From a virus (Duplodnaviria > Heunggongvirae > Uroviricota > Caudoviricetes), in the IMG/VR virus record IMGVR_UViG_2698536480_000003: DNA of 16,051 bases; one strand, given 5' to 3'. The notes under the pieces were generated by a model. The model worked only from the letters and a program-made list of their open reading frames with translations, ran no database searches and was not told the origin of the DNA. The translations under genes were made by a program, and so were the position numbers. This document shows positions 6,206 to 16,051 of the stretch, piece after piece; within the stretch, counting starts at the first letter, position 1, and every line of letters begins with the position of its first letter.

Positions 6206-6234
6206 ATTTTATCCATATTTTTTGAAAAATGCAA
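6206..6234 (-). promoter_or_regulatory. Sigma-70 promoter (TTGCAT-17nt-TAAAAT) immediately downstream of the Q gene: candidate PR'-like late promoter
   Basis: Minus-strand -35 at 6234..6229 and -10 at 6211..6206 with a 17-nt spacer; about 30 nt after the quuQ stop and about 40-60 nt upstream of the terminator hairpin. Confidence 0.55.
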
Positions 6235-6265
6235 ACATCATGTCGCCATCTTCAGCAAAAATCAT

Positions 6266-7018
6266 TTATCTCGTCACCTTCCTCAATTGCGCTTCCGCGT
6301 ATGCTTCTTCCTGCCAGCACTTTGTTACCAGTTTACCAATGACGTCCGCATACCCCTTATACCACTGATAATCGGTCAGGTCTGGTACCAGCTTCTGGAC
6401 ATGACGTCGTGCCAGCGTGGTCGGTAAACGACTAAACCGGTTTCCATTACAACGCCCACAAATCTTATATACCGGTACGCCATGAAACCGGGTTCTTTTT
6501 TCATCCAGAACAATCCCTTTACCCTTACACCCTCTGCACGCTGTGCTGGCTTCGCCCTTACCATGGCAATGCTGACATAGTTCCTTCACCCATTCTTCCT
6601 TGATTACAGATTCCCCGCGTCTGTAGTGTTTCACCACTTCGCGCAATACATTATAAAATCCCGTACCTGAACAATGCTCACAGCGAGCCTTACTTGCCGC
6701 AGACCTGGAGTAATCAGCAAAGGCAAAACTCACGAGGTAAGGAATAATCTGTAACCGGATTTCTTCACTCAATTTGTTCAATGTCGGGTTATCCAGTGCC
6801 ATCGCGTAATTTAGCAGGCCTTCAATCGCAAACTGAGGGTCCTGAACACCAACTTTTGCCAGAAATAAGGCCAACCCAAGTGGTGCTTTCGACTGCACCA
6901 TCCCCTGCGCTGCCATTACATCCGTAATTGTTAAACAACCGGTGCCTGTCGCTGGAGCGTCATCGCTCAATTTTGGAGATTTTGGGGAGTAATATTTTGG
7001 TAAGGCTTCAAGGTTCAT
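6266..7018 (-). CDS. quuQ: Late-gene antiterminator Q (zinc-binding, multiple CxxC motifs), 250 aa
   Basis: MNLEALPKYYSPKSPKL... with CEHCSGTG, CQHCHGKG, CRGCKGKG and CGRCNG motifs. ATG at 7018 is preceded by GGAG; the longer track ORF (7048) starts at TTG and overlaps ydfU. Confidence 0.85.
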   Translation of the reverse strand: MNLEALPKYYSPKSPKLSDDAPATGTGCLTITDVMAAQGMVQSKAPLGLALFLAKVGVQDPQFAIEGLLNYAMALDNPTLNKLSEEIRLQIIPYLVSFAFADYSRSAASKARCEHCSGTGFYNVLREVVKHYRRGESVIKEEWVKELCQHCHGKGEASTACRGCKGKGIVLDEKRTRFHGVPVYKICGRCNGNRFSRLPTTLARRHVQKLVPDLTDYQWYKGYADVIGKLVTKCWQEEAYAEAQLRKVTR

Positions 7019-8895: not shown

Positions 8896-9051
8896 TTACT
8901 CCTCAGGTTCGTAAGCTGTGAAGACAGCGACCTCCGTCTGGCCGGTTCGGATTCGTACCTCGCAGAGGTCTTTCCTCGTTACCAGTGCCGTCACTATGAC
9001 GGTTAAACAGATGACGATCAGGGCGATTAACATCGCCTTTTGCTGCTTCAT
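8896..9051 (-). CDS. hokD: Hok-family type I toxin HokD (RelF), 51 aa
   Basis: Hand translation: MKQQKAMLIALIVICLTVIVTALVTRKDLCEVRIRTGQTEVAVFTAYEPEE*. Absent from the ORF track because it is under 60 aa. Confidence 0.9.
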   Translation of the reverse strand: MKQQKAMLIALIVICLTVIVTALVTRKDLCEVRIRTGQTEVAVFTAYEPEE

Positions 9052-9122
9052 AGCCTGCTTCTCCTGTCAACGCAAAGCAGAAGTGTCACCTTCGGTGCGA
9101 AACAGAGATGTCATGCTTTGGT

Positions 9123-9410
9123 TCAGAGAATGCGTTTGACCGCCTCGCTATATACTTCCGAGCGTTCTCTTTTCCCAACAGAAATCACGAAAACGACAAC
9201 TTTCTCGTCTATAACCTGGTATACAAGGCGATAGCCTGAAGACCGGAGCTTAATCTTGTAACAATCAGGCATACCACGGAGCTTGTTTGCTTCAATCCGG
9301 GGTGACTCAAGTACTTCAACCAGCTTCTTTTTCAACTGTTCACGTACCGTCGAGCCCAGCTTTCGCCATTCCTTTAGTGCCCGCTCGTCAAAATCCAGAA
9401 AATACGCCAT
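9123..9410 (-). CDS. relE: Type II toxin RelE (ribosome-dependent mRNA endonuclease), 95 aa
   Basis: MAYFLDFDERALKEWRKLGSTVREQLKKKLVEVLESPRIEANKLRGMPDCYKIKLRSSGYRLVYQVIDEKVVVFVISVGKRERSEVYSEAVKRIL; start overlaps the relB stop (TGATG). Confidence 0.95.
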   Translation of the reverse strand: MAYFLDFDERALKEWRKLGSTVREQLKKKLVEVLESPRIEANKLRGMPDCYKIKLRSSGYRLVYQVIDEKVVVFVISVGKRERSEVYSEAVKRIL

Positions 9411-9649
9411 CAGAGTTCATCCAGCGTCACACGTACTGGCTTAGGATTACGAAGCCGTTCTTTCACTATCTCCACAAGTTCAGCATCTTCATCACTCAGG
9501 AGTGTCTGTTTGAACGGCAAGCGTTCATTGTCAGCGATATACTCGAGCATGAGACGAAGCGCTTCAGAAGGAGTTACACCCATTTTTTCAAGCGCGGCGT
9601 AAGAACGCGCTTTAAGTTCATCGTCAATACGCAGGTTAATGCTACCCAT
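9410..9649 (-). CDS. relB: Type II antitoxin RelB (RHH family), 79 aa
   Basis: MGSINLRIDDELKARSYAALEKMGVTPSEALRLMLEYIADNERLPFKQTLLSDEDAELVEIVKERLRNPKPVRVTLDEL. Confidence 0.95.
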   Translation of the reverse strand: MGSINLRIDDELKARSYAALEKMGVTPSEALRLMLEYIADNERLPFKQTLLSDEDAELVEIVKERLRNPKPVRVTLDEL

Positions 9650-9660
9650 GTCTTACACCT

Positions 9661-9686
9661 CTTGTAATTACAAATGTCATTACAAG
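9661..9686. promoter_or_regulatory. relBE operator-like inverted repeat (cttgtaatta ... tcattacaag) in the relB promoter region
   Basis: Inverted TTGTAAT/ATTACAA hexad-type repeats matching 9 of 10 positions, 12-37 nt upstream of the relB start. Confidence 0.55.
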
Positions 9687-9979
9687 TATCGCACTACAAC
9701 ATGCTTAGGGCAAGTCACGAAGGAAGTCAGAAAGTAGTCGTAAGAACGGTGATCACTGTCCGCTTTGTGCCAGGAGCAGCCATTGCTAAGTCCATCCTGT
9801 ATTGTGCAGGTCAGCTCGTTTTTAAAGAGTCCGGCCATCATCTTACTGGTACAGACACCATATACTTTGTGACGGTCAGGCTACATATGCACAACTCAAC
9901 TTATTCATCTATTTTTTGCTTTAGCATGTCAGTGTTGCTTTCTCGTCGGCGGGTGAGCGGTGACCTGACCTGTCGATAA
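9674..9979 (+). CDS. ydfV: Questionable ORF, 101 aa, divergent from relB and overlapping its operator (YdfV-like placement)
   Basis: ATG at 9674 lies inside the relO repeats; no clear Shine-Dalgarno; position and size are similar to Qin ydfV as I remember it. May not be expressed. Confidence 0.3.
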   Translation: MSLQVSHYNMLRASHEGSQKVVVRTVITVRFVPGAAIAKSILYCAGQLVFKESGHHLTGTDTIYFVTVRLHMHNSTYSSIFCFSMSVLLSRRRVSGDLTCR

Positions 9980-10131
9980 AGGAACGTAACACGTTTTATG
10001 CAACACCCGCATGCGGCAGAAAATTATTGCCGAACGTTTACCCCTGTCAACAAGCTTTACTTTCTGAGGCGCGCCAGCCCGCGAGGAAAACAATCTGAAC
10101 ATCAAACAATTAATGACACAAGAAATACGAT

Positions 10132-10158
10132 TAAAGATTTTTTTGTGCATGCCGATAG
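10132..10158 (+). promoter_or_regulatory. Sigma-28 (FliA) class 3 flagellar promoter: TAAAGATT-11nt-GCCGATAG
   Basis: Close match to the FliA consensus TAAAGTTT-N11-GCCGATAA, 24 nt upstream of the flxA ATG with AAGGAG Shine-Dalgarno between them. Confidence 0.75.
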
Positions 10159-10181
10159 TGCTTTTTTAAAAGGAGAAATCT

Positions 10182-10514
10182 ATGTCTGTCACAATTCAGG
10201 GAAATACCTCAACCGTTATTTCAAACAACTCCGCCCCGGAAGGAACATCAGAAATAGCCAAAATCACAAGACAAATTCAGGTGCTGACTGAAAAGCTTGG
10301 GAAAATCTCATCGGAAGAGGGGATGACGACACAGCAGAAAAAAGAAATGGCTGCATTGGTACAGAAGCAAATTGAAAGCCTCTGGGCTCAACTGGAGCAG
10401 TTGTTAAGGCAGCAGGCAGAGAAAAAGAATGAAGACGCGACAGTTCAGCCTGATAAAAAAGAAGAGAAAAAAGACGATACAAATACCGCTGGCACCATTG
10501 ATATTTACGTCTAA
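10182..10514 (+). CDS. flxA: FlxA (FliA-regulated protein), 110 aa
   Basis: MSVTIQGNTSTVISNNSAPEGTSEIAKITRQIQVLTEKLGKISSEEGMTTQQKKEMAALVQKQIESLWAQLEQLLRQQAEKKNEDATVQPDKKEEKKDDTNTAGTIDIYV; sigma-28 promoter upstream. Confidence 0.9.
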   Translation: MSVTIQGNTSTVISNNSAPEGTSEIAKITRQIQVLTEKLGKISSEEGMTTQQKKEMAALVQKQIESLWAQLEQLLRQQAEKKNEDATVQPDKKEEKKDDTNTAGTIDIYV

Positions 10515-10801: not shown

Positions 10802-12444
10802 CATTACGCGCACCGCCCAGACTGACTCAGCGCGTTTCTGGCATATCCCCGGTAAAACAAGTAACAAACCACCCGAAAATGAACACCAGAAACGCGACTT
10901 AAGAATCTACCCTATGAATGGATATGCACTCAACCGAATCGATCTTGGTTTCAATCTTTTTTATCGGGATCAGGCTTCTTTTTAGGTAACTTCGGGGGCT
11001 TAACTTGCTGATGACTTTGCGTTCGGCGCGTAAGCCAGGGATGGTCAGCTTTAGGTTTAACATAGTATTTTGAGCGTAAATCAATACGGGCATTATCCAC
11101 TCGTTCATGGACACTCTTTTCATCATCCAGTGGTATAGGCTCCGGGCCATCAACATACTTTTCCCAGCCCAGCGCTTTCCCGTCATACAGAACGTTAATT
11201 TCACCGTCAAAGTTCTCGCATACAGTAACAACCGAATGCCTAAGTCGATATCCCCGGCCCTCACTGCGTACCTGAAACGCACTGCTTTTGTACTGGAAAG
11301 TGAGATTTTTAGACAGAACGCGCTTCGCCTGTAGGCTGAAGATATAACCCAGTTCCTCTTCAGAATGGTGCACATCAAGATGAGCATTATCAGTAGTACG
11401 AGGCGACGTAGCGAACCGGTTGTTATAGGCTTCAATAAAGGTCGGCAACCATGCATTTGCTGTTTCAATATCACTGATATTCTGAAGCCGCATTTCTTTG
11501 ACCAGCCTGTCCTGTAGTGTCTGATTGGCGCGCTCTACCCGCCCTTTTGCCTGCGGGCTGTTGGCATGGATTGGCTCGATGCCCAGTGTCTTTATCGCAC
11601 GAGTGAACTGGGTCAGCTCACCTTCCCGCTCTGGGTTATTTACCCTGAATATACTGTGTCTATCAGAGTAGAGAGCGAGCGGTACGCCATGATCATTAAG
11701 GTAACCCCGGAGGGTTTCCATGTAAGCCCGGGTTGTTTCAGCAGGCACAAAACGCAACGCCATCAACGCACTGGTGGCATCATCAATGAAAACGATCAGT
11801 GTACATCTGGGGCCTCGATTTTCAAACCAGTCATGAGGTGAGCCATCAATCTGGATCAGTTCACCGTAAGATGGTCGTCGCATGCGGCGTTGATATATAC
11901 GGGCAATTTTACGACGGCGTTCACGCCATAACCCCTCTTCTATCATCCACTTTCTGAGAGTTTCAACGGATAAAGATAAACCGTGTATCTCGCGCAATTT
12001 TTCGCACGCAAACGTAGGTCCAAAATCAGCGTAACGGCCTTTGAGGAGTGAAATTACTGTTGCTCTGAATTCAGTAGAAAAGGAATTATTAGGACGCTTT
12101 CCACGTCGGTGGGAAACCAGACCAGAAGGCCCTTCATTTCTATACCGTTGCACCAGACGTTTAACCTGCCGAATAGAAATGCCAATGCGTGCCGCAGCTT
12201 GTTCCTGAATAATCTGAAGTCGGTGGAGTTCCTTATGACTCATCGTAACAGTCTCTTTGATCATGAAAAATCCCCCAGAGAATTGTCTGGGGACATTTTA
12301 GAATGGTTCAAAGGGGACATTACAGCTTGGTGTTAACAATAGCCTGCTTCTCCGTGCCTTTCGGCACGTAAGAGGCTAACCTACATGTGTCTAGCATGAA
12401 ATTGGCCTCAGATTAATGTTAAGCGTCTTGCAGGACGCGTAATG
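10802..12444 (-). mobile_element. Insertion sequence, about 1.64 kb, carrying a single DDE transposase; ends proposed from imperfect terminal inverted repeats (cattacgcg...)
   Basis: 10802-10826 (cattacgcgcaccgcccagac) versus the reverse complement of 12420-12444 (cattacgcgtcctgcaagac): 9 of 9 at the tip, then partial. No clean target-site duplication found, so the exact boundaries are uncertain. Confidence 0.4.
10951..12264 (-). CDS. DDE transposase with N-terminal helix-turn-helix and rve (integrase-core) domain, 437 aa; IS481/ISNCY(IS1202-group)-like
   Basis: N-terminus ELHRLQIIQEQAAARIGISIRQVKRLVQRYRNEGPSGLVSHRRGKRP; catalytic-core-like IQIDGSPHDW ... FIDDATSA ... ANSPQAKGRVER (D, D, E). 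Exact IS family not determined. Confidence 0.8.
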   Translation of the reverse strand: MIKETVTMSHKELHRLQIIQEQAAARIGISIRQVKRLVQRYRNEGPSGLVSHRRGKRPNNSFSTEFRATVISLLKGRYADFGPTFACEKLREIHGLSLSVETLRKWMIEEGLWRERRRKIARIYQRRMRRPSYGELIQIDGSPHDWFENRGPRCTLIVFIDDATSALMALRFVPAETTRAYMETLRGYLNDHGVPLALYSDRHSIFRVNNPEREGELTQFTRAIKTLGIEPIHANSPQAKGRVERANQTLQDRLVKEMRLQNISDIETANAWLPTFIEAYNNRFATSPRTTDNAHLDVHHSEEELGYIFSLQAKRVLSKNLTFQYKSSAFQVRSEGRGYRLRHSVVTVCENFDGEINVLYDGKALGWEKYVDGPEPIPLDDEKSVHERVDNARIDLRSKYYVKPKADHPWLTRRTQSHQQVKPPKLPKKKPDPDKKD

Positions 12445-12778: not shown

Positions 12779-13032
12779 TATTCCTCCTACAATCAATGTG
12801 CAATTACATTTAAACACACCTCAATTTGGCCGGACATATAAATATCTAAACCAGAAAAAATCACTTACATAGCGTTACAAACTCTTTAGTCTAAAGGTTC
12901 ATCGTAAAACATTCCCCATACTTATCAGTCCGTTCCGCGCCAGGTAGCTCATTGCCTTATCTGGCAACCTGTAATCAGGTTTCCGCTTTTTCAGTTGGCT
13001 GGTCGTTTAACCGACATAGTTAATCCATTAAT

Positions 13033-13320
13033 CTAGTTGCCGGATGTTGGTGGATTTTCGCGTTTTAGTTGTTCATAAAAGTGCACAGCTTTAACCAGTT
13101 CTTCTGATGTAACTGGGACTGGTGAGGCAGTGAATAAGGCCTGAATTTGATAGTTCGGCCTGTCGTTACAATCCTCTTTTTTCGGTACATATTTCCAGTC
13201 ACCAGACCACTACTTCCCCTGAAAGTCCGTAACGCCTTTTTTCACGTAGCGATATCGCCATGCCACTGGTTTTGCTTGCCCCGCCGTTTCATGCCCTTCC
13301 TGATAATTAATCTCGCTCAT
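13033..13320 (-). pseudogene. Accessory ORF of about 95 codons interrupted by a single in-frame TAG (at 13210-13212)
   Basis: MSEINYQEGHETAGQAKPVAWRYRYVKKGVTDFQGK*WSGDWKYVPKKEDCNDRPNYQIQALFTASPVPVTSEELVKAVHFYEQLKRENPPTSGN*; the frame is intact on both sides of the TAG. Confidence 0.4.
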
Positions 13321-13382
13321 TCATCGCCCCACTCATCACAATATGCTTCGACCGGAGTTTTTCCCGCTTCATAGTCATCACG

Positions 13383-13508
13383 CTAGGATTCGACATCAGC
13401 AGCACTTCCACCGCGTAACTCACCATAGTCCATTAATAGTTCATCCCGCTCTTCAAAACTGATGTTATATTTAGCTGAACAAAAATCAGCCACTTTGTTC
13501 TTCCTCAT
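13383..13508 (-). CDS. Candidate small protein, 41 aa (MRKNKVADFCSAKYNISFEERDELLMDYGELRGGSAADVES)
   Basis: ATG-initiated minus-strand ORF read by hand; in tandem with the neighbouring small ORFs; no family recognised. Confidence 0.25.
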   Translation of the reverse strand: MRKNKVADFCSAKYNISFEERDELLMDYGELRGGSAADVES

Positions 13509-13557
13509 CGTCTTTTATTTCGTGGTATGAGTAATTGCAGTAGTTAAAGAAAATTTC

Positions 13558-13668
13558 TTATGCTCCGTCATGAATTTCCTCAGGTGTTGCGTCATCGTCC
13601 ACTTCGAATACATCCTCAAAATCTCCACCAGCTATTCCCGTTTCAATAATAATTTTGAACTTTCGCAT
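13558..13668 (-). CDS. Candidate small acidic protein, 36 aa (MRKFKIIIETGIAGGDFEDVFEVDDDATPEEIHDGA)
   Basis: ATG-initiated minus-strand ORF with GGAGG and a GC hairpin (gccgccc/gggcggc) upstream; no family recognised. Confidence 0.25.
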   Translation of the reverse strand: MRKFKIIIETGIAGGDFEDVFEVDDDATPEEIHDGA

Positions 13669-13840
13669 TTCACTACCGCCCTTTCGGGCGGCCTCCTGAT
13701 GTTCTGAGGGTGCAGAAATCCATCCGGTTAAGGATTAAATTTTATTTACAGAACTGAATTTAATTATTCAGATATACGTATCTGTAGCCTTACGAATCTA
13801 CTCACTGGATGCCTCTTTCATAAAAATAATCCAGTGGGTT

Positions 13841-14287
13841 TTATCGTTTTTTCCCTGTTCGTTGACAGATAACAGGTTTTCTGTCTGTCAGTGCCAGAAT
13901 CTGGCTTACCGGTATTTGCGTTTCATTCCATTAAAAAATCAGAACGCCGTGCGGCCTCAACACCCGAAAGGCTTCTTTAAATCTCTGTCGCGAATCATCA
14001 CGCCAGGCATCTTTATTCAGCCGTCCATATTTCTTTCCCATCCAGGCGTTATCACCAACACTCTCAAGATGCGGAGGGTCTAATACAACCATCGAAAAAG
14101 ATGCGTCTGCAAATGATAATGCACGAAAATCTGCGATAATGTCAGGGCTGATAATCAAGCGTCTCCCATTGCGTAATGTGTATCCTTCTTTTCTGATATC
14201 GCTGAATATCGCCCGTTCGTCAGACTTATCGAACCAGAACATGCGGCTGCCACAGCACATATCAAGAATGGTTGCCGGTGCACTCAC
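13841..14287 (-). pseudogene. Small SAM-dependent methyltransferase (motif I LDMCCGS followed by DPPH, RsmD/gamma-like order), about 150 codons, interrupted by one in-frame TAA at 13931-13933
   Basis: Track ORF 13931..14287 (118 aa) ends ...RPHGVLIF*, and the same frame continues WNETQIPVSQILALTDRKPVICQRTGKKR* to 13841. Start is GTG overlapping the upstream ORF stop (GTGA). Confidence 0.55.
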
Positions 14288-14454
14288 TGCGCCACGTCCT
14301 GAAAATTACCCTGATAGAAAGCCAGTATGCGCTGCATAACTTCGCTCTTCCGGCACTCGCGACAGATTATGTTTAGGCGACTGTCGTAGCGACGTATTTC
14401 TCCGTCAGGTGATGACCAGATAAGGTCCGGATCAACCACAGCAGGTTTCTTCAC
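14284..14454 (-). CDS. Candidate 56-aa protein translationally coupled to the methyltransferase (GTG start; VKKPAVVDPDLIWSSPDGEIRRYDSRLNIICRECRKSEVMQRILAFYQGNFQDVAQ)
   Basis: GAGGG 5 nt upstream of the GTG at 14454; its TGA stop overlaps the methyltransferase GTG start. The open frame extends further upstream without a standard start codon. Confidence 0.35.
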   Translation of the reverse strand: MKKPAVVDPDLIWSSPDGEIRRYDSRLNIICRECRKSEVMQRILAFYQGNFQDVAQ

Positions 14455-14598
14455 CTTTGCCCTCGAGAGTTTTTTGCGGGCGTTTTGCCAGTCCTTACGC
14501 GCCTGTTCAGAGGGGAATAACCCGTATCCGAAGAGCAGTTAATTGCGCTGAAAGGAATAAAAAAAGGTACGTTAAAAAAGGCCCGGGAAAAATCGTTT

Positions 14599-14736
14599 AT
14601 GGAAGGAAGGGAATATAAGCATGTCGCTCATGACGGTATGCCATGGGATAACAGTCCATGCTTTTACAACCTGGAAGAAATTGATCGCTGGATTGAGCGC
14701 CAGGCATCAGCGAGACCAAGACGTCATCTTACTTGA
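14599..14736 (+). CDS. Excisionase-like C-terminal remnant, 45 aa from the first ATG (MEGREYKHVAHDGMPWDNSPCFYNLEEIDRWIERQASARPRRHLT)
   Basis: The frame is open from 14521 (PVSEEQLIALKGIKKGTLKKAREKSF...) but has no ATG/GTG/TTG before 14599. The GREY and YNLEEIDRWI motifs resemble excisionase-like proteins from memory. Sits immediately upstream of int. Confidence 0.4.
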   Translation: MEGREYKHVAHDGMPWDNSPCFYNLEEIDRWIERQASARPRRHLT

Positions 14737-14770
14737 CTAAAAGCCACACTAACTAATGAGAGAAGTTGAA

Positions 14771-16051
14771 ATGAAATATCCGACAGGCGTGGAAAACCAT
14801 GGAGGGAAATTACGTATCTGGTTTGTTTATAAAGACGTAAGAGTCAGGGAAAATCTGGGGGTTCCTGACACAGCAAAAAACAGGCGCGTTGCAGGTGAAC
14901 TACGCTCCTCTGTTTGTTACGCAATAAAAACTGGTGTTTTCGACTATGCAAAACAGTTTCCCTCCTCACGCAATCTGGAAAAATTTGGTGAGGCCCGACA
15001 AGATTTAACCATAAAAGAACTGGCTGAAAAATTTCTGGCACTGAAAGAAACTGAAGTCGCCAAAACATCACTCAACACATACCGTGCCGTCATCAAAAAT
15101 ATCCTGAGCATAATCGGTGAAAAAAATCTTGCCTCATCGATTAATAAAGAAAAATTACTGGAGGTTCGTAAAGAGTTACTGACTGGATACCAGATCCCCA
15201 AAAGTAACTATATTGTTACACAACCAGGGAGATCGGCTGTAACTGTAAATAATTACATGACAAATCTTAACGCCGTGTTCCAGTTTGGTGTTGATAACGG
15301 TTACCTGGCAGATAATCCGTTTAAGGGGATCTCGCCATTAAAGGAATCAAGAACCATTCCGGATCCTCTTTCGCGGGAAGAATTTATCCGTCTTATCGAT
15401 GCGTGCAGAAATCAGCAAGCAAAAAATTTATGGTGTGTTTCTGTTTATACTGGAGTTCGCCCTGGTGAGCTGTGTGCACTTGGATGGGAGGACATAGATC
15501 TGAAAAATGGAACAATGATGATCAGGAGAAATTTAGCAAAAAACCGTTTCACGGTACCAAAAACACAGGCGGGAACCAATCGGGTCATTCATCTTATTAA
15601 GCCAGCAATCGACGCTCTCCGGAGTCAGATGACATTAACGAGACTGAGCAAAGAGCATATCATTGATGTTCACCTCAGAGAGTATGGCAGAACAGAAAAA
15701 CAAAAATGCACCTTTGTTTTTCAACCTGAAGTGTCAGCGAGAGTAAAAAATTATGGTGACCATTTTACCGTTGACTCAATAAGGCAGATGTGGGACGCAG
15801 CGATAAAACGTGCCGGACTCCGCCATCGAAAATCATATCAGTCGAGACATACTTATGCCTGCTGGTCGCTGACAGCTGGTGCTAACCCGGCATTTATAGC
15901 AAACCAGATGGGCCATGCAGATGCGCAAATGGTATTTCAGGTATACGGAAAATGGATGTCTGAAAACAATAATGCACAGGTAGCTTTGTTAAATACACAG
16001 TTAAGCGAGTTTGCCCCAACCATGCCCCATAACGAAGCAATGAAAAATTAA
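14771..16051 (+). CDS. int: Tyrosine recombinase / phage integrase with N-terminal arm-binding domain, 426 aa (431 aa if started at ATG 14756)
   Basis: MKYPTGVENHGGKLRIWFVYKDVRVRENLG (arm-type N-terminus like Rac-type integrases), and a C-terminal catalytic region ...HRKSYQSRHTYACWSLTAGANPAFIANQMGHADAQMVFQVYGKW. The stop codon is the last three bases of the window. Confidence 0.85.
   Translation: MKYPTGVENHGGKLRIWFVYKDVRVRENLGVPDTAKNRRVAGELRSSVCYAIKTGVFDYAKQFPSSRNLEKFGEARQDLTIKELAEKFLALKETEVAKTSLNTYRAVIKNILSIIGEKNLASSINKEKLLEVRKELLTGYQIPKSNYIVTQPGRSAVTVNNYMTNLNAVFQFGVDNGYLADNPFKGISPLKESRTIPDPLSREEFIRLIDACRNQQAKNLWCVSVYTGVRPGELCALGWEDIDLKNGTMMIRRNLAKNRFTVPKTQAGTNRVIHLIKPAIDALRSQMTLTRLSKEHIIDVHLREYGRTEKQKCTFVFQPEVSARVKNYGDHFTVDSIRQMWDAAIKRAGLRHRKSYQSRHTYACWSLTAGANPAFIANQMGHADAQMVFQVYGKWMSENNNAQVALLNTQLSEFAPTMPHNEAMKN

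Follow-up and report, generated by a model that had tools for sequence, protein, structure and literature searches.

The locus analyzed here raises the question of whether a small methyltransferase gene and the 56-codon open reading frame (ORF) that precedes it constitute a functional pair. Both lie on the minus strand of a 16,051-nucleotide stretch of virus DNA (Caudoviricetes; IMG/VR record IMGVR_UViG_2698536480_000003), referred to below, at its full length, as the window. The original prediction regarded the two as an operon, in which a translationally coupled small protein might control an orphan DNA methyltransferase, and ranked it as the leading candidate for an undescribed accessory module. 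Our analysis indicates that the locus very probably consists instead of two genes from the rightward early operon of the Qin prophage, both decayed: a dead methyltransferase and the tail of a DUF977 gene. On this reading the locus reflects ordinary decay, and no new module.

The prophage in the window is Qin (Kim), a defective lambdoid element of Escherichia coli, at its usual site. The whole length of the window is 100% identical, as two pieces, to a chromosomal region of hundreds of E. coli genomes, and the annotated positions of the Qin genes in reference genomes map exactly onto the ORFs of the window. The annotation of these reference genomes gives the order ydfU, rem, hokD, relE, relB, ydfV, flxA, ydfW and a truncated ISNCY transposase; after this remnant come two small pseudogenes, a 'class I SAM-dependent methyltransferase', a 'DUF977 family protein', xis, int and rspB. 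Synteny and near-identity beside rspB thus both place the window in Qin, with which it has in common ydfU, rem, hokD, relBE, ydfV, flxA and ydfW, and then xis and int by rspB. It differs from Qin in a further deletion of 2,088 bp, which fuses the DUF977 remnant to xis, and from the Qin of strain K-12 in that the dicA, dicC, dicF and dicB region is missing. Around the two genes in question, the following features were mapped, in part from the annotation of L001, a genome with a complete DUF977 gene, and of L002, which carries the commonest Qin variant:

14771-16051, plus strand: integrase of the prophage, extending to the end of the window and adjoining rspB in the reference genomes
14531-14736, plus strand: 5′-truncated excisionase gene of the xisR type (Pfam PF06806, positions 17-69 of 70, E 1.6e-23; annotation of L001 and L002)
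13486-13668, minus strand: DUF7167 pseudogene with an internal stop, downstream of the methyltransferase and not a nuclease (from the L001 annotation, offset +7699)

Decay is common to the genes 3′ of the methyltransferase (10951-12264, 12899-13320 and 13486-13668, all on the minus strand), which the RefSeq annotation of L001 gives as a truncated ISNCY transposase, a frameshifted hypothetical gene and the DUF7167 gene with its internal stop. An Rfam scan of 13000-15000 gave no match.

The methyltransferase gene and its landmarks are as follows:

13798-14287, minus strand: pseudogene of a small phage-type class I SAM-dependent methyltransferase (PHROG 954; alignment to intact homologues; RefSeq)
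14246-14266, minus strand: motif I, the SAM-binding loop LDMCCGS, residues 8-14, near-invariant across the family
14069-14080, minus strand: motif IV, DPPH, residues 70-73, a catalytic motif of the amino-methyltransferase type; D70, P71, P72 and H73 are invariant in 80 sequences
13931-13933, minus strand: nonsense codon TAA at codon 119, replacing the invariant Lys of LIFKWNE (comparison with relatives)
13847-13852, minus strand: run of six A's with a +1 A insertion, causing a frameshift at codon 147 (alignment to relatives)

The minus-strand translation from 14287 to 13841 reads VSAPATILDMCCGSRMFWF...VVLDPPHLES...GVLIF*WNETQ...QRTGKKR*. Motif I is followed by DPPH at a spacing of 62 residues, where about 60 had been predicted, and the succession of motif I and motif IV supports the earlier assignment to the class I SAM-dependent methyltransferases, with a gamma-like or RsmD-like motif order. 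The ancestral gene had 162 codons and a stop codon (TAG at 13798-13800, minus strand). The RefSeq coding sequence covers just the first 118 of these codons (13931-14287, minus strand; product WP_001310834.1), and RefSeq treats the 118-residue product as an ordinary coding sequence, with no pseudogene label.

Profile searches place this gene in a known family. Residues 4-147 of the window protein match positions 51-194 of the 229-position profile PHROG 954, 'DNA methyltransferase' (E 5.4e-72), and an intact homologue 82% identical to it, P0004, matches the PADLOC models PDLC03288 (MTase_II, 1.1e-72) and PDLC03730 (orphan MTase, 9.5e-49). Pfam returned weak generic matches only, to Methyltransf_11 (7.5e-4, below the cut-off) and N6_N4_Mtase (0.06); nothing in NCBIfam came close to any cut-off, and a PDB sequence search with the single sequence and two profiles gave nothing significant. 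To the same family belong WP_001310834.1, ORF50 of Listeria phage A118, and homologues in an Stx2c phage and in Salmonella phage Oslo. The window gene matches the family profile over full length; it has the D-x-C-C-G-S of motif I and the invariant DPPH, it shares the position in a phage early operon with no nuclease partner, and its LIFKWNE and THW..F.K segments can be recovered once two lesions are corrected. Unlike the intact members of PHROG 954, the window copy is disrupted twice, by a nonsense mutation at codon 119 and, at codon 147, by a +1 frameshift, which makes it a pseudogene; it has also lost the upstream transcription unit. The gene can therefore not be called undescribed, as originally proposed: it is present in RefSeq, in PHROG 954 and in PADLOC, and its relatives form more than 6,600 clusters at 90% identity.

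The family is found far beyond the enterobacteria. At E ≤ 1e-10, the relatives comprise 1,097 representatives of 50%-identity clusters, and 254 phage records carry the methyltransferase, with hosts that include Streptococcus, Vibrio, Acinetobacter, Listeria, Gordonia and Enterococcus. Intact enterobacterial members are 157-167 residues long and read LIFKWNETQ...QRTGKNDKTHWIIFVKE. Across phages of Firmicutes, Actinobacteria, Bacteroidetes and Proteobacteria, the protein of about 160 residues is 46-62% identical. Segments that are invariant across these phyla include D-PPH, F-K-W and T-x-W, and the Cys-Cys pair within motif I is also conserved. This cross-phylum conservation is unusually strong for a phage accessory gene. 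The phage loci compared were:

L083: Listeria phage A118
L085: Gordonia phage Pickett
L086: Vibrio phage X29
L087: Streptococcus phage Javan187
L088: Bacteroides phage BKO1-TP3

Longer forms of the protein also occur. In some 30 or more relatives of 248 residues (e.g., P0007, P0014 and P0075, from Klebsiella, Citrobacter, Leclercia and Enterobacter), a conserved extension of about 85 residues is fused to the C-terminus of the methyltransferase; it reads ...LLLVDVPETVWPAEVGMVF...HHQRRLKHHINRMWLEKMPVP... and has no Pfam match. Many other members are 200-240 residues long, with 50-80 additional N-terminal residues that may be either a DNA-binding or recognition module or the result of mis-called starts.

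To model the fold of an intact member, we used P0004 and an 80-sequence alignment, from which AlphaFold predicted a single domain (pLDDT 86.6). An alignment of 30 near-identical sequences had given a pLDDT of 58.6 and was discarded; the greater diversity came via a search with the Listeria A118 protein. Comparison of this model with known structures retrieves a generic class I fold only. That is, the RNA methyltransferases Bud23, Trm11, RsmC and TrmN rank equal to or above the DNA methyltransferases M.TaqI and M.BceJIV, and the matches also include many small-molecule methyltransferases; comparison of the predicted structure cannot tell DNA from RNA methyltransferases here. The intact protein ends about 90 residues past motif IV, and has no target-recognition domain. 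Relative to the gamma-class enzyme M.TaqI, therefore, the family has the same order of motifs I and IV and lacks the C-terminal target-recognition domain. It differs from both the gamma class and the RNA m2G methyltransferases RsmD, RsmC and Trm11 in that motif IV has a His where those have Tyr or Phe; nor does it have the target-recognition or RNA-binding domain of M.TaqI, RsmD, RsmC and Trm11, or a sequence-profile match to them. In amino-methyltransferases, a motif IV of the DPPH type that follows strand 4 is indicative of N-methylation at an exocyclic amino group.

The genomic surroundings of the family were examined in 80 methyltransferase-encoding loci from different species (L003-L082). 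No restriction endonuclease recurs in these 80 loci, the only nuclease-type neighbors being single matches to HNH and VRR-NUC. The downstream neighbors are varied, and the commonest among them are DNA methylases, of the C5 type in 5 of 78 loci and of the MT-A70 type in 3 of 78; upstream, an N6_N4 methylase, a PAPS reductase and Lar were found in one locus each. In Gordonia phage Pickett and Bacteroides phage BKO1-TP3, too, other DNA methylases or PAPS reductase adjoin the methyltransferase. This arrangement beside DNA-modification genes suggests that the methyltransferase may be part of small anti-restriction islands in prophage early regions. In the window itself, there is no ORF longer than 85 residues on either strand within about 1.6 kb downstream, and upstream of the pair there are only the excisionase remnant and the integrase. 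The adjacent endonuclease of a type II restriction-modification system is thus absent, and the original description of the gene as orphan-type stands.

Because of the location in phage early operons, the DNA-modification neighbors and the database labels, we infer that the intact family probably acts on DNA and would serve in the escape from restriction. The alternative that fares best is that the ancestral family methylates not DNA but either RNA, acting on rRNA or tRNA as RsmD, RsmC or Trm11 do, or some other substrate; this would be compatible with a dead copy in the window. A protein of only about 160 residues with no target-recognition domain would be consistent with this alternative, as would best structural neighbors that include Bud23, Trm11, RsmC and TrmN; the degree of identity maintained from E. 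coli prophages to phages of Listeria, Streptococcus, Gordonia and Bacteroides might fit a universal substrate, and the literature searched contains no experimental specificity. The PHROG profile and the REBASE-derived PADLOC models, however, label the family as DNA methyltransferase, and the Pfam and NCBIfam searches found no match to an RNA methyltransferase family, so that assignment to an rRNA or tRNA family, the outcome the original prediction had held to be decisive against it, did not materialize. In addition, the gene repeatedly adjoins other DNA methylases, PAPS reductase and Lar, and phages carry it within early operons, as they do known anti-restriction methylases. We thus consider a substrate other than DNA to be unlikely. 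A broader proposition, in which the intact family would be either a DNA methyltransferase that is non-specific or reads a very short motif, or an enzyme acting on RNA or another substrate, rather than an ordinary sequence-specific orphan methylase, appears to us similarly improbable.

For the DNA methyltransferase reading, GenBank offers a note on ORF50 of Listeria phage A118, 'methylates cytosine residues in DNA', which is annotation only. Our literature search found no experimental study of the methyltransferase family or of DUF977/LygF. M.EcoGIX is an unrelated plasmid enzyme.

Comparison with the relatives indicates that the methyltransferase in the window carries two independent inactivating lesions. 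The first is the in-frame TAA at codon 119, which the original prediction had correctly identified as inactivating. In the scored relatives this codon is AAA in 61 of 79 and AAG in 16 of 79, i.e., it encodes Lys in 77 of 79; K119 is invariant in the 80-sequence alignment, and the TAA of the window is a single base change away from AAA. The second lesion, the +1 A at 13847-13852, had been overlooked. The window reads GGGAAAAAACGAT in this run, and the relatives have five A's, e.g., GGGAAAAACGAC. Removing one A restores the C-terminal tail KNDKTHWIIFMKEASSE*, which matches the C-terminus of the homologues, and shifts the stop to 13798-13800. The stop at 13841-13843, taken as the left end of the gene in the first reading, is therefore out of frame because of the insertion. 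The uninterrupted frame of about 150-170 codons that contains KWNE and THW..F.K in the family is absent from the window copy, which is thus a pseudogene member. Nor did we retain a split enzyme or a programmed read-through at the TAA as explanations, because the segment 3′ of the TAA has its own frameshift.

Related lesions were seen in other copies. P0001, a near-identical variant of 133 residues from a metagenome contig, has GAA (Glu) at codon 119 and retains the frameshifted C-terminus QRTGKKR; this GAA may have arisen by mutation of the stop codon to sense, or it may be a sequencing variant. The homologue in Salmonella phage vB_SosS_Oslo (L084:2504-2960) is also frameshifted, after ...GRLNKK, an independent decay of the same gene.

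Given the RefSeq annotation, we also considered whether the 118-residue N-terminal product might be a functional protein under selection, for instance a fragment that binds SAM or has a regulatory role; its presence in many E. coli genomes would then be accounted for. A 1,061-bp allele probe (13700-14760) is indeed found at 99% identity or more in 1,810 genome records, RefSeq lists the product as a coding sequence, and several 118-residue variants exist at 94-98% identity (P0009, P0013, P0035 and P0040). The truncated product nevertheless lacks seven invariant residues, K119, W120, P138, T150, H151, W152 and F155, together with the two final core strands that AlphaFold predicts (pLDDT 86.6). 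Moreover, the region after the stop is frameshifted, as neutral decay predicts, the neighboring genes are likewise pseudogenes, no promoter-like site lies upstream, and vertical inheritance of Qin, which sits at a fixed place in the chromosome, accounts for the spread of the allele. A functional role for this fragment is therefore very unlikely.

The decay that we favor extends to the sequence upstream, where the features are these:

14284-14530, minus strand: 3′ remnant, of about 81 codons, of a gene for DUF977, also named LygF or 'Ren-like exclusion protein' (matches to PF06163 and PHROG 142)
14284-14287, minus strand: GTGA, the stop/start overlap of the DUF977 frame (TGA, 14284-14286) and the methyltransferase (GTG, 14285-14287)
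14524-14530, no strand assigned: deletion junction with 7 bp of microhomology, GTATCCG (blastn of the window against L002)

The ORF of 56 residues (14284-14454, minus strand) begins with GTG and ends with TGA, but its frame is open for 85 codons, back to 14538, and the GTG at 14454 is an internal Val codon, that of RAKVKKP, of a longer protein. Residues 7-52 match positions 82-134 of the 134 of Pfam PF06163 (E 3.5e-13), and the ORF also matches PHROG 142, 'Ren-like exclusion protein' (1.3e-16). A complete DUF977 gene of 140 codons is present in L001; its product contains ...RAKVKKPAVV..., reads ...SGYGLFPSEQARKDWQNARKKLSRAKVKKPAVVDPD..., and matches PF06163 at positions 1-134 (E 5.1e-29). The window ORF, by contrast, gives no such match to the whole profile (134 positions, about 140 residues). 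Homology to DUF977 in the window starts at GYGLFPSE, so that what remains is the C-terminal part, the last 81 or so of 140 codons, with no native start codon. In other genomes, RefSeq flags the corresponding segment as 'incomplete; missing N-terminus'. In phage records the DUF977 gene is named LygF and lies 3′ of the replication genes, and the remnant in the window holds the place that its intact relatives have directly after those genes. A PDB search with DUF977 gave no match. The 56-residue ORF is thus an artefact, called from a GTG that lies within the DUF977 remnant. The original prediction had treated it as a gene in its own right, unless it proved to be the 3′ end of an unrelated decayed gene, and this is what the match to the end of PF06163 reveals.

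The missing part of the DUF977 gene was traced by comparison with L002. Window positions 13001-14530 correspond to L002 5302-6831, and 14524-16051 to 8920-10447; absent from the window are the intervening 2,088 bp (L002:6832-8919), which comprise a pseudogene for an exoribonuclease together with the first 39 nt of xis. None of 5,426 complete E. coli genomes spans an 81-bp probe that bridges this junction, each half being common alone. Either the source strain has a private deletion, or the junction is an artefact that arose during assembly. The copy of DUF977 in L002 had itself been truncated by an older deletion, which took the immunity and replication region. PhiR42_1 (ECOR13) retains that region, with cI, Cro/DicC, cII, O, LygF and the methyltransferase, and its methyltransferase carries the same 118-residue truncation. 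In the window, no promoter-like minus-strand site was detected upstream of 14454 or of the DUF977 remnant. With the upstream promoter and the replication region deleted, the term operon is not supported for the window copy.

The GTGA shared by the upstream stop and the methyltransferase start is present as originally described, and an AGGA sits 9 nt upstream of the GTG of the methyltransferase. The intact pair in L001 has the identical 4-nt overlap in RefSeq (coding sequences 6585-7007 and 6232-6588), and the junction sequence of a diverged DUF977-methyltransferase pair from Shigella flexneri (L035), GGCGCAGTGAGT, is the same as that in the window. A small upstream ORF that overlaps the start of a methyltransferase is also what the window shares with restriction-modification systems regulated by a C-protein (controller). 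The window differs from these systems, however, in having no nuclease and in that the upstream ORF is a gene fragment, and the full-length DUF977 is not conserved together with the methyltransferase.

The last point is evident from the survey of 80 loci, 73 of which have an upstream ORF on the same strand. These 73 ORFs fall into 57 unrelated clusters, and the upstream genes belong to 18 different Pfam families, each found in at most three loci. DUF977 is a clear upstream neighbor in only one locus of the 80, that of S. flexneri; another, L004, has one weak DUF977 match of 20 residues, 0.5 kb upstream of the methyltransferase. A conserved small regulator directly upstream of the methyltransferase was not found in the 80 loci. 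Conversely, of 24 phage records with DUF977, one (PhiR42_1) is among the 70 listed of the 254 phage records with the methyltransferase, and in Rac-SA53 the gene after LygF is a different one. The exact 4-nt overlap, in turn, was found in 32 of the 73 loci, with unrelated upstream genes. Because it is seen with any upstream gene, we regard the GTGA overlap as the normal packing of phage early operons, and not as a specific pairing; it is no chance event, yet it is non-specific. The proposal that the small protein is a controller is thus not borne out.

Although the overlap is real and the junction recurs in S. flexneri, a functional or recently functional module, in which a translationally coupled small protein regulates an orphan DNA methyltransferase, is extremely improbable, since the small ORF is a 3′ fragment of a 140-codon gene, a truncation that refutes such a module for the window, and since DUF977 so rarely precedes the methyltransferase, the upstream genes and the 4-nt overlaps are so diverse, and DUF977 in Rac-SA53 precedes a different gene.

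Our proposed reading is therefore that of stepwise decay of an early operon. In an intact relative, the order is cro/dicC, cII, the replication gene O, DUF977 (LygF, 'Ren-like'), the small methyltransferase and further small genes, and such early-operon genes are tightly packed, with stop/start overlaps a matter of routine. The intact methyltransferase of about 160 residues has little beyond the class I catalytic domain that binds SAM, in which the DPPH of motif IV comes after motif I, and phages may use this orphan enzyme on their own DNA, methylating a base at its exocyclic amino group, and so escape host restriction. The copy in the window, with its TAA at codon 119 and its frameshift at codon 147, is non-functional; the DUF977 gene upstream has lost its first 59 or so codons, and the immunity and replication region that supplied the promoter has been deleted.

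Both the methyltransferase family and the Qin locus are already known, and the pair is not a conserved module. The locus is nonetheless a clear case of stepwise prophage decay, in which two nested deletions have joined a nonsense codon and a frameshift in a homopolymer, and it offers a caution, in that ORFs called mechanically from an internal GTG of a truncated gene can mimic small 'coupled' regulators. The wider interest lies in the intact family, which is widespread and strikingly conserved, has no target-recognition domain, and has DNA as its putative substrate.
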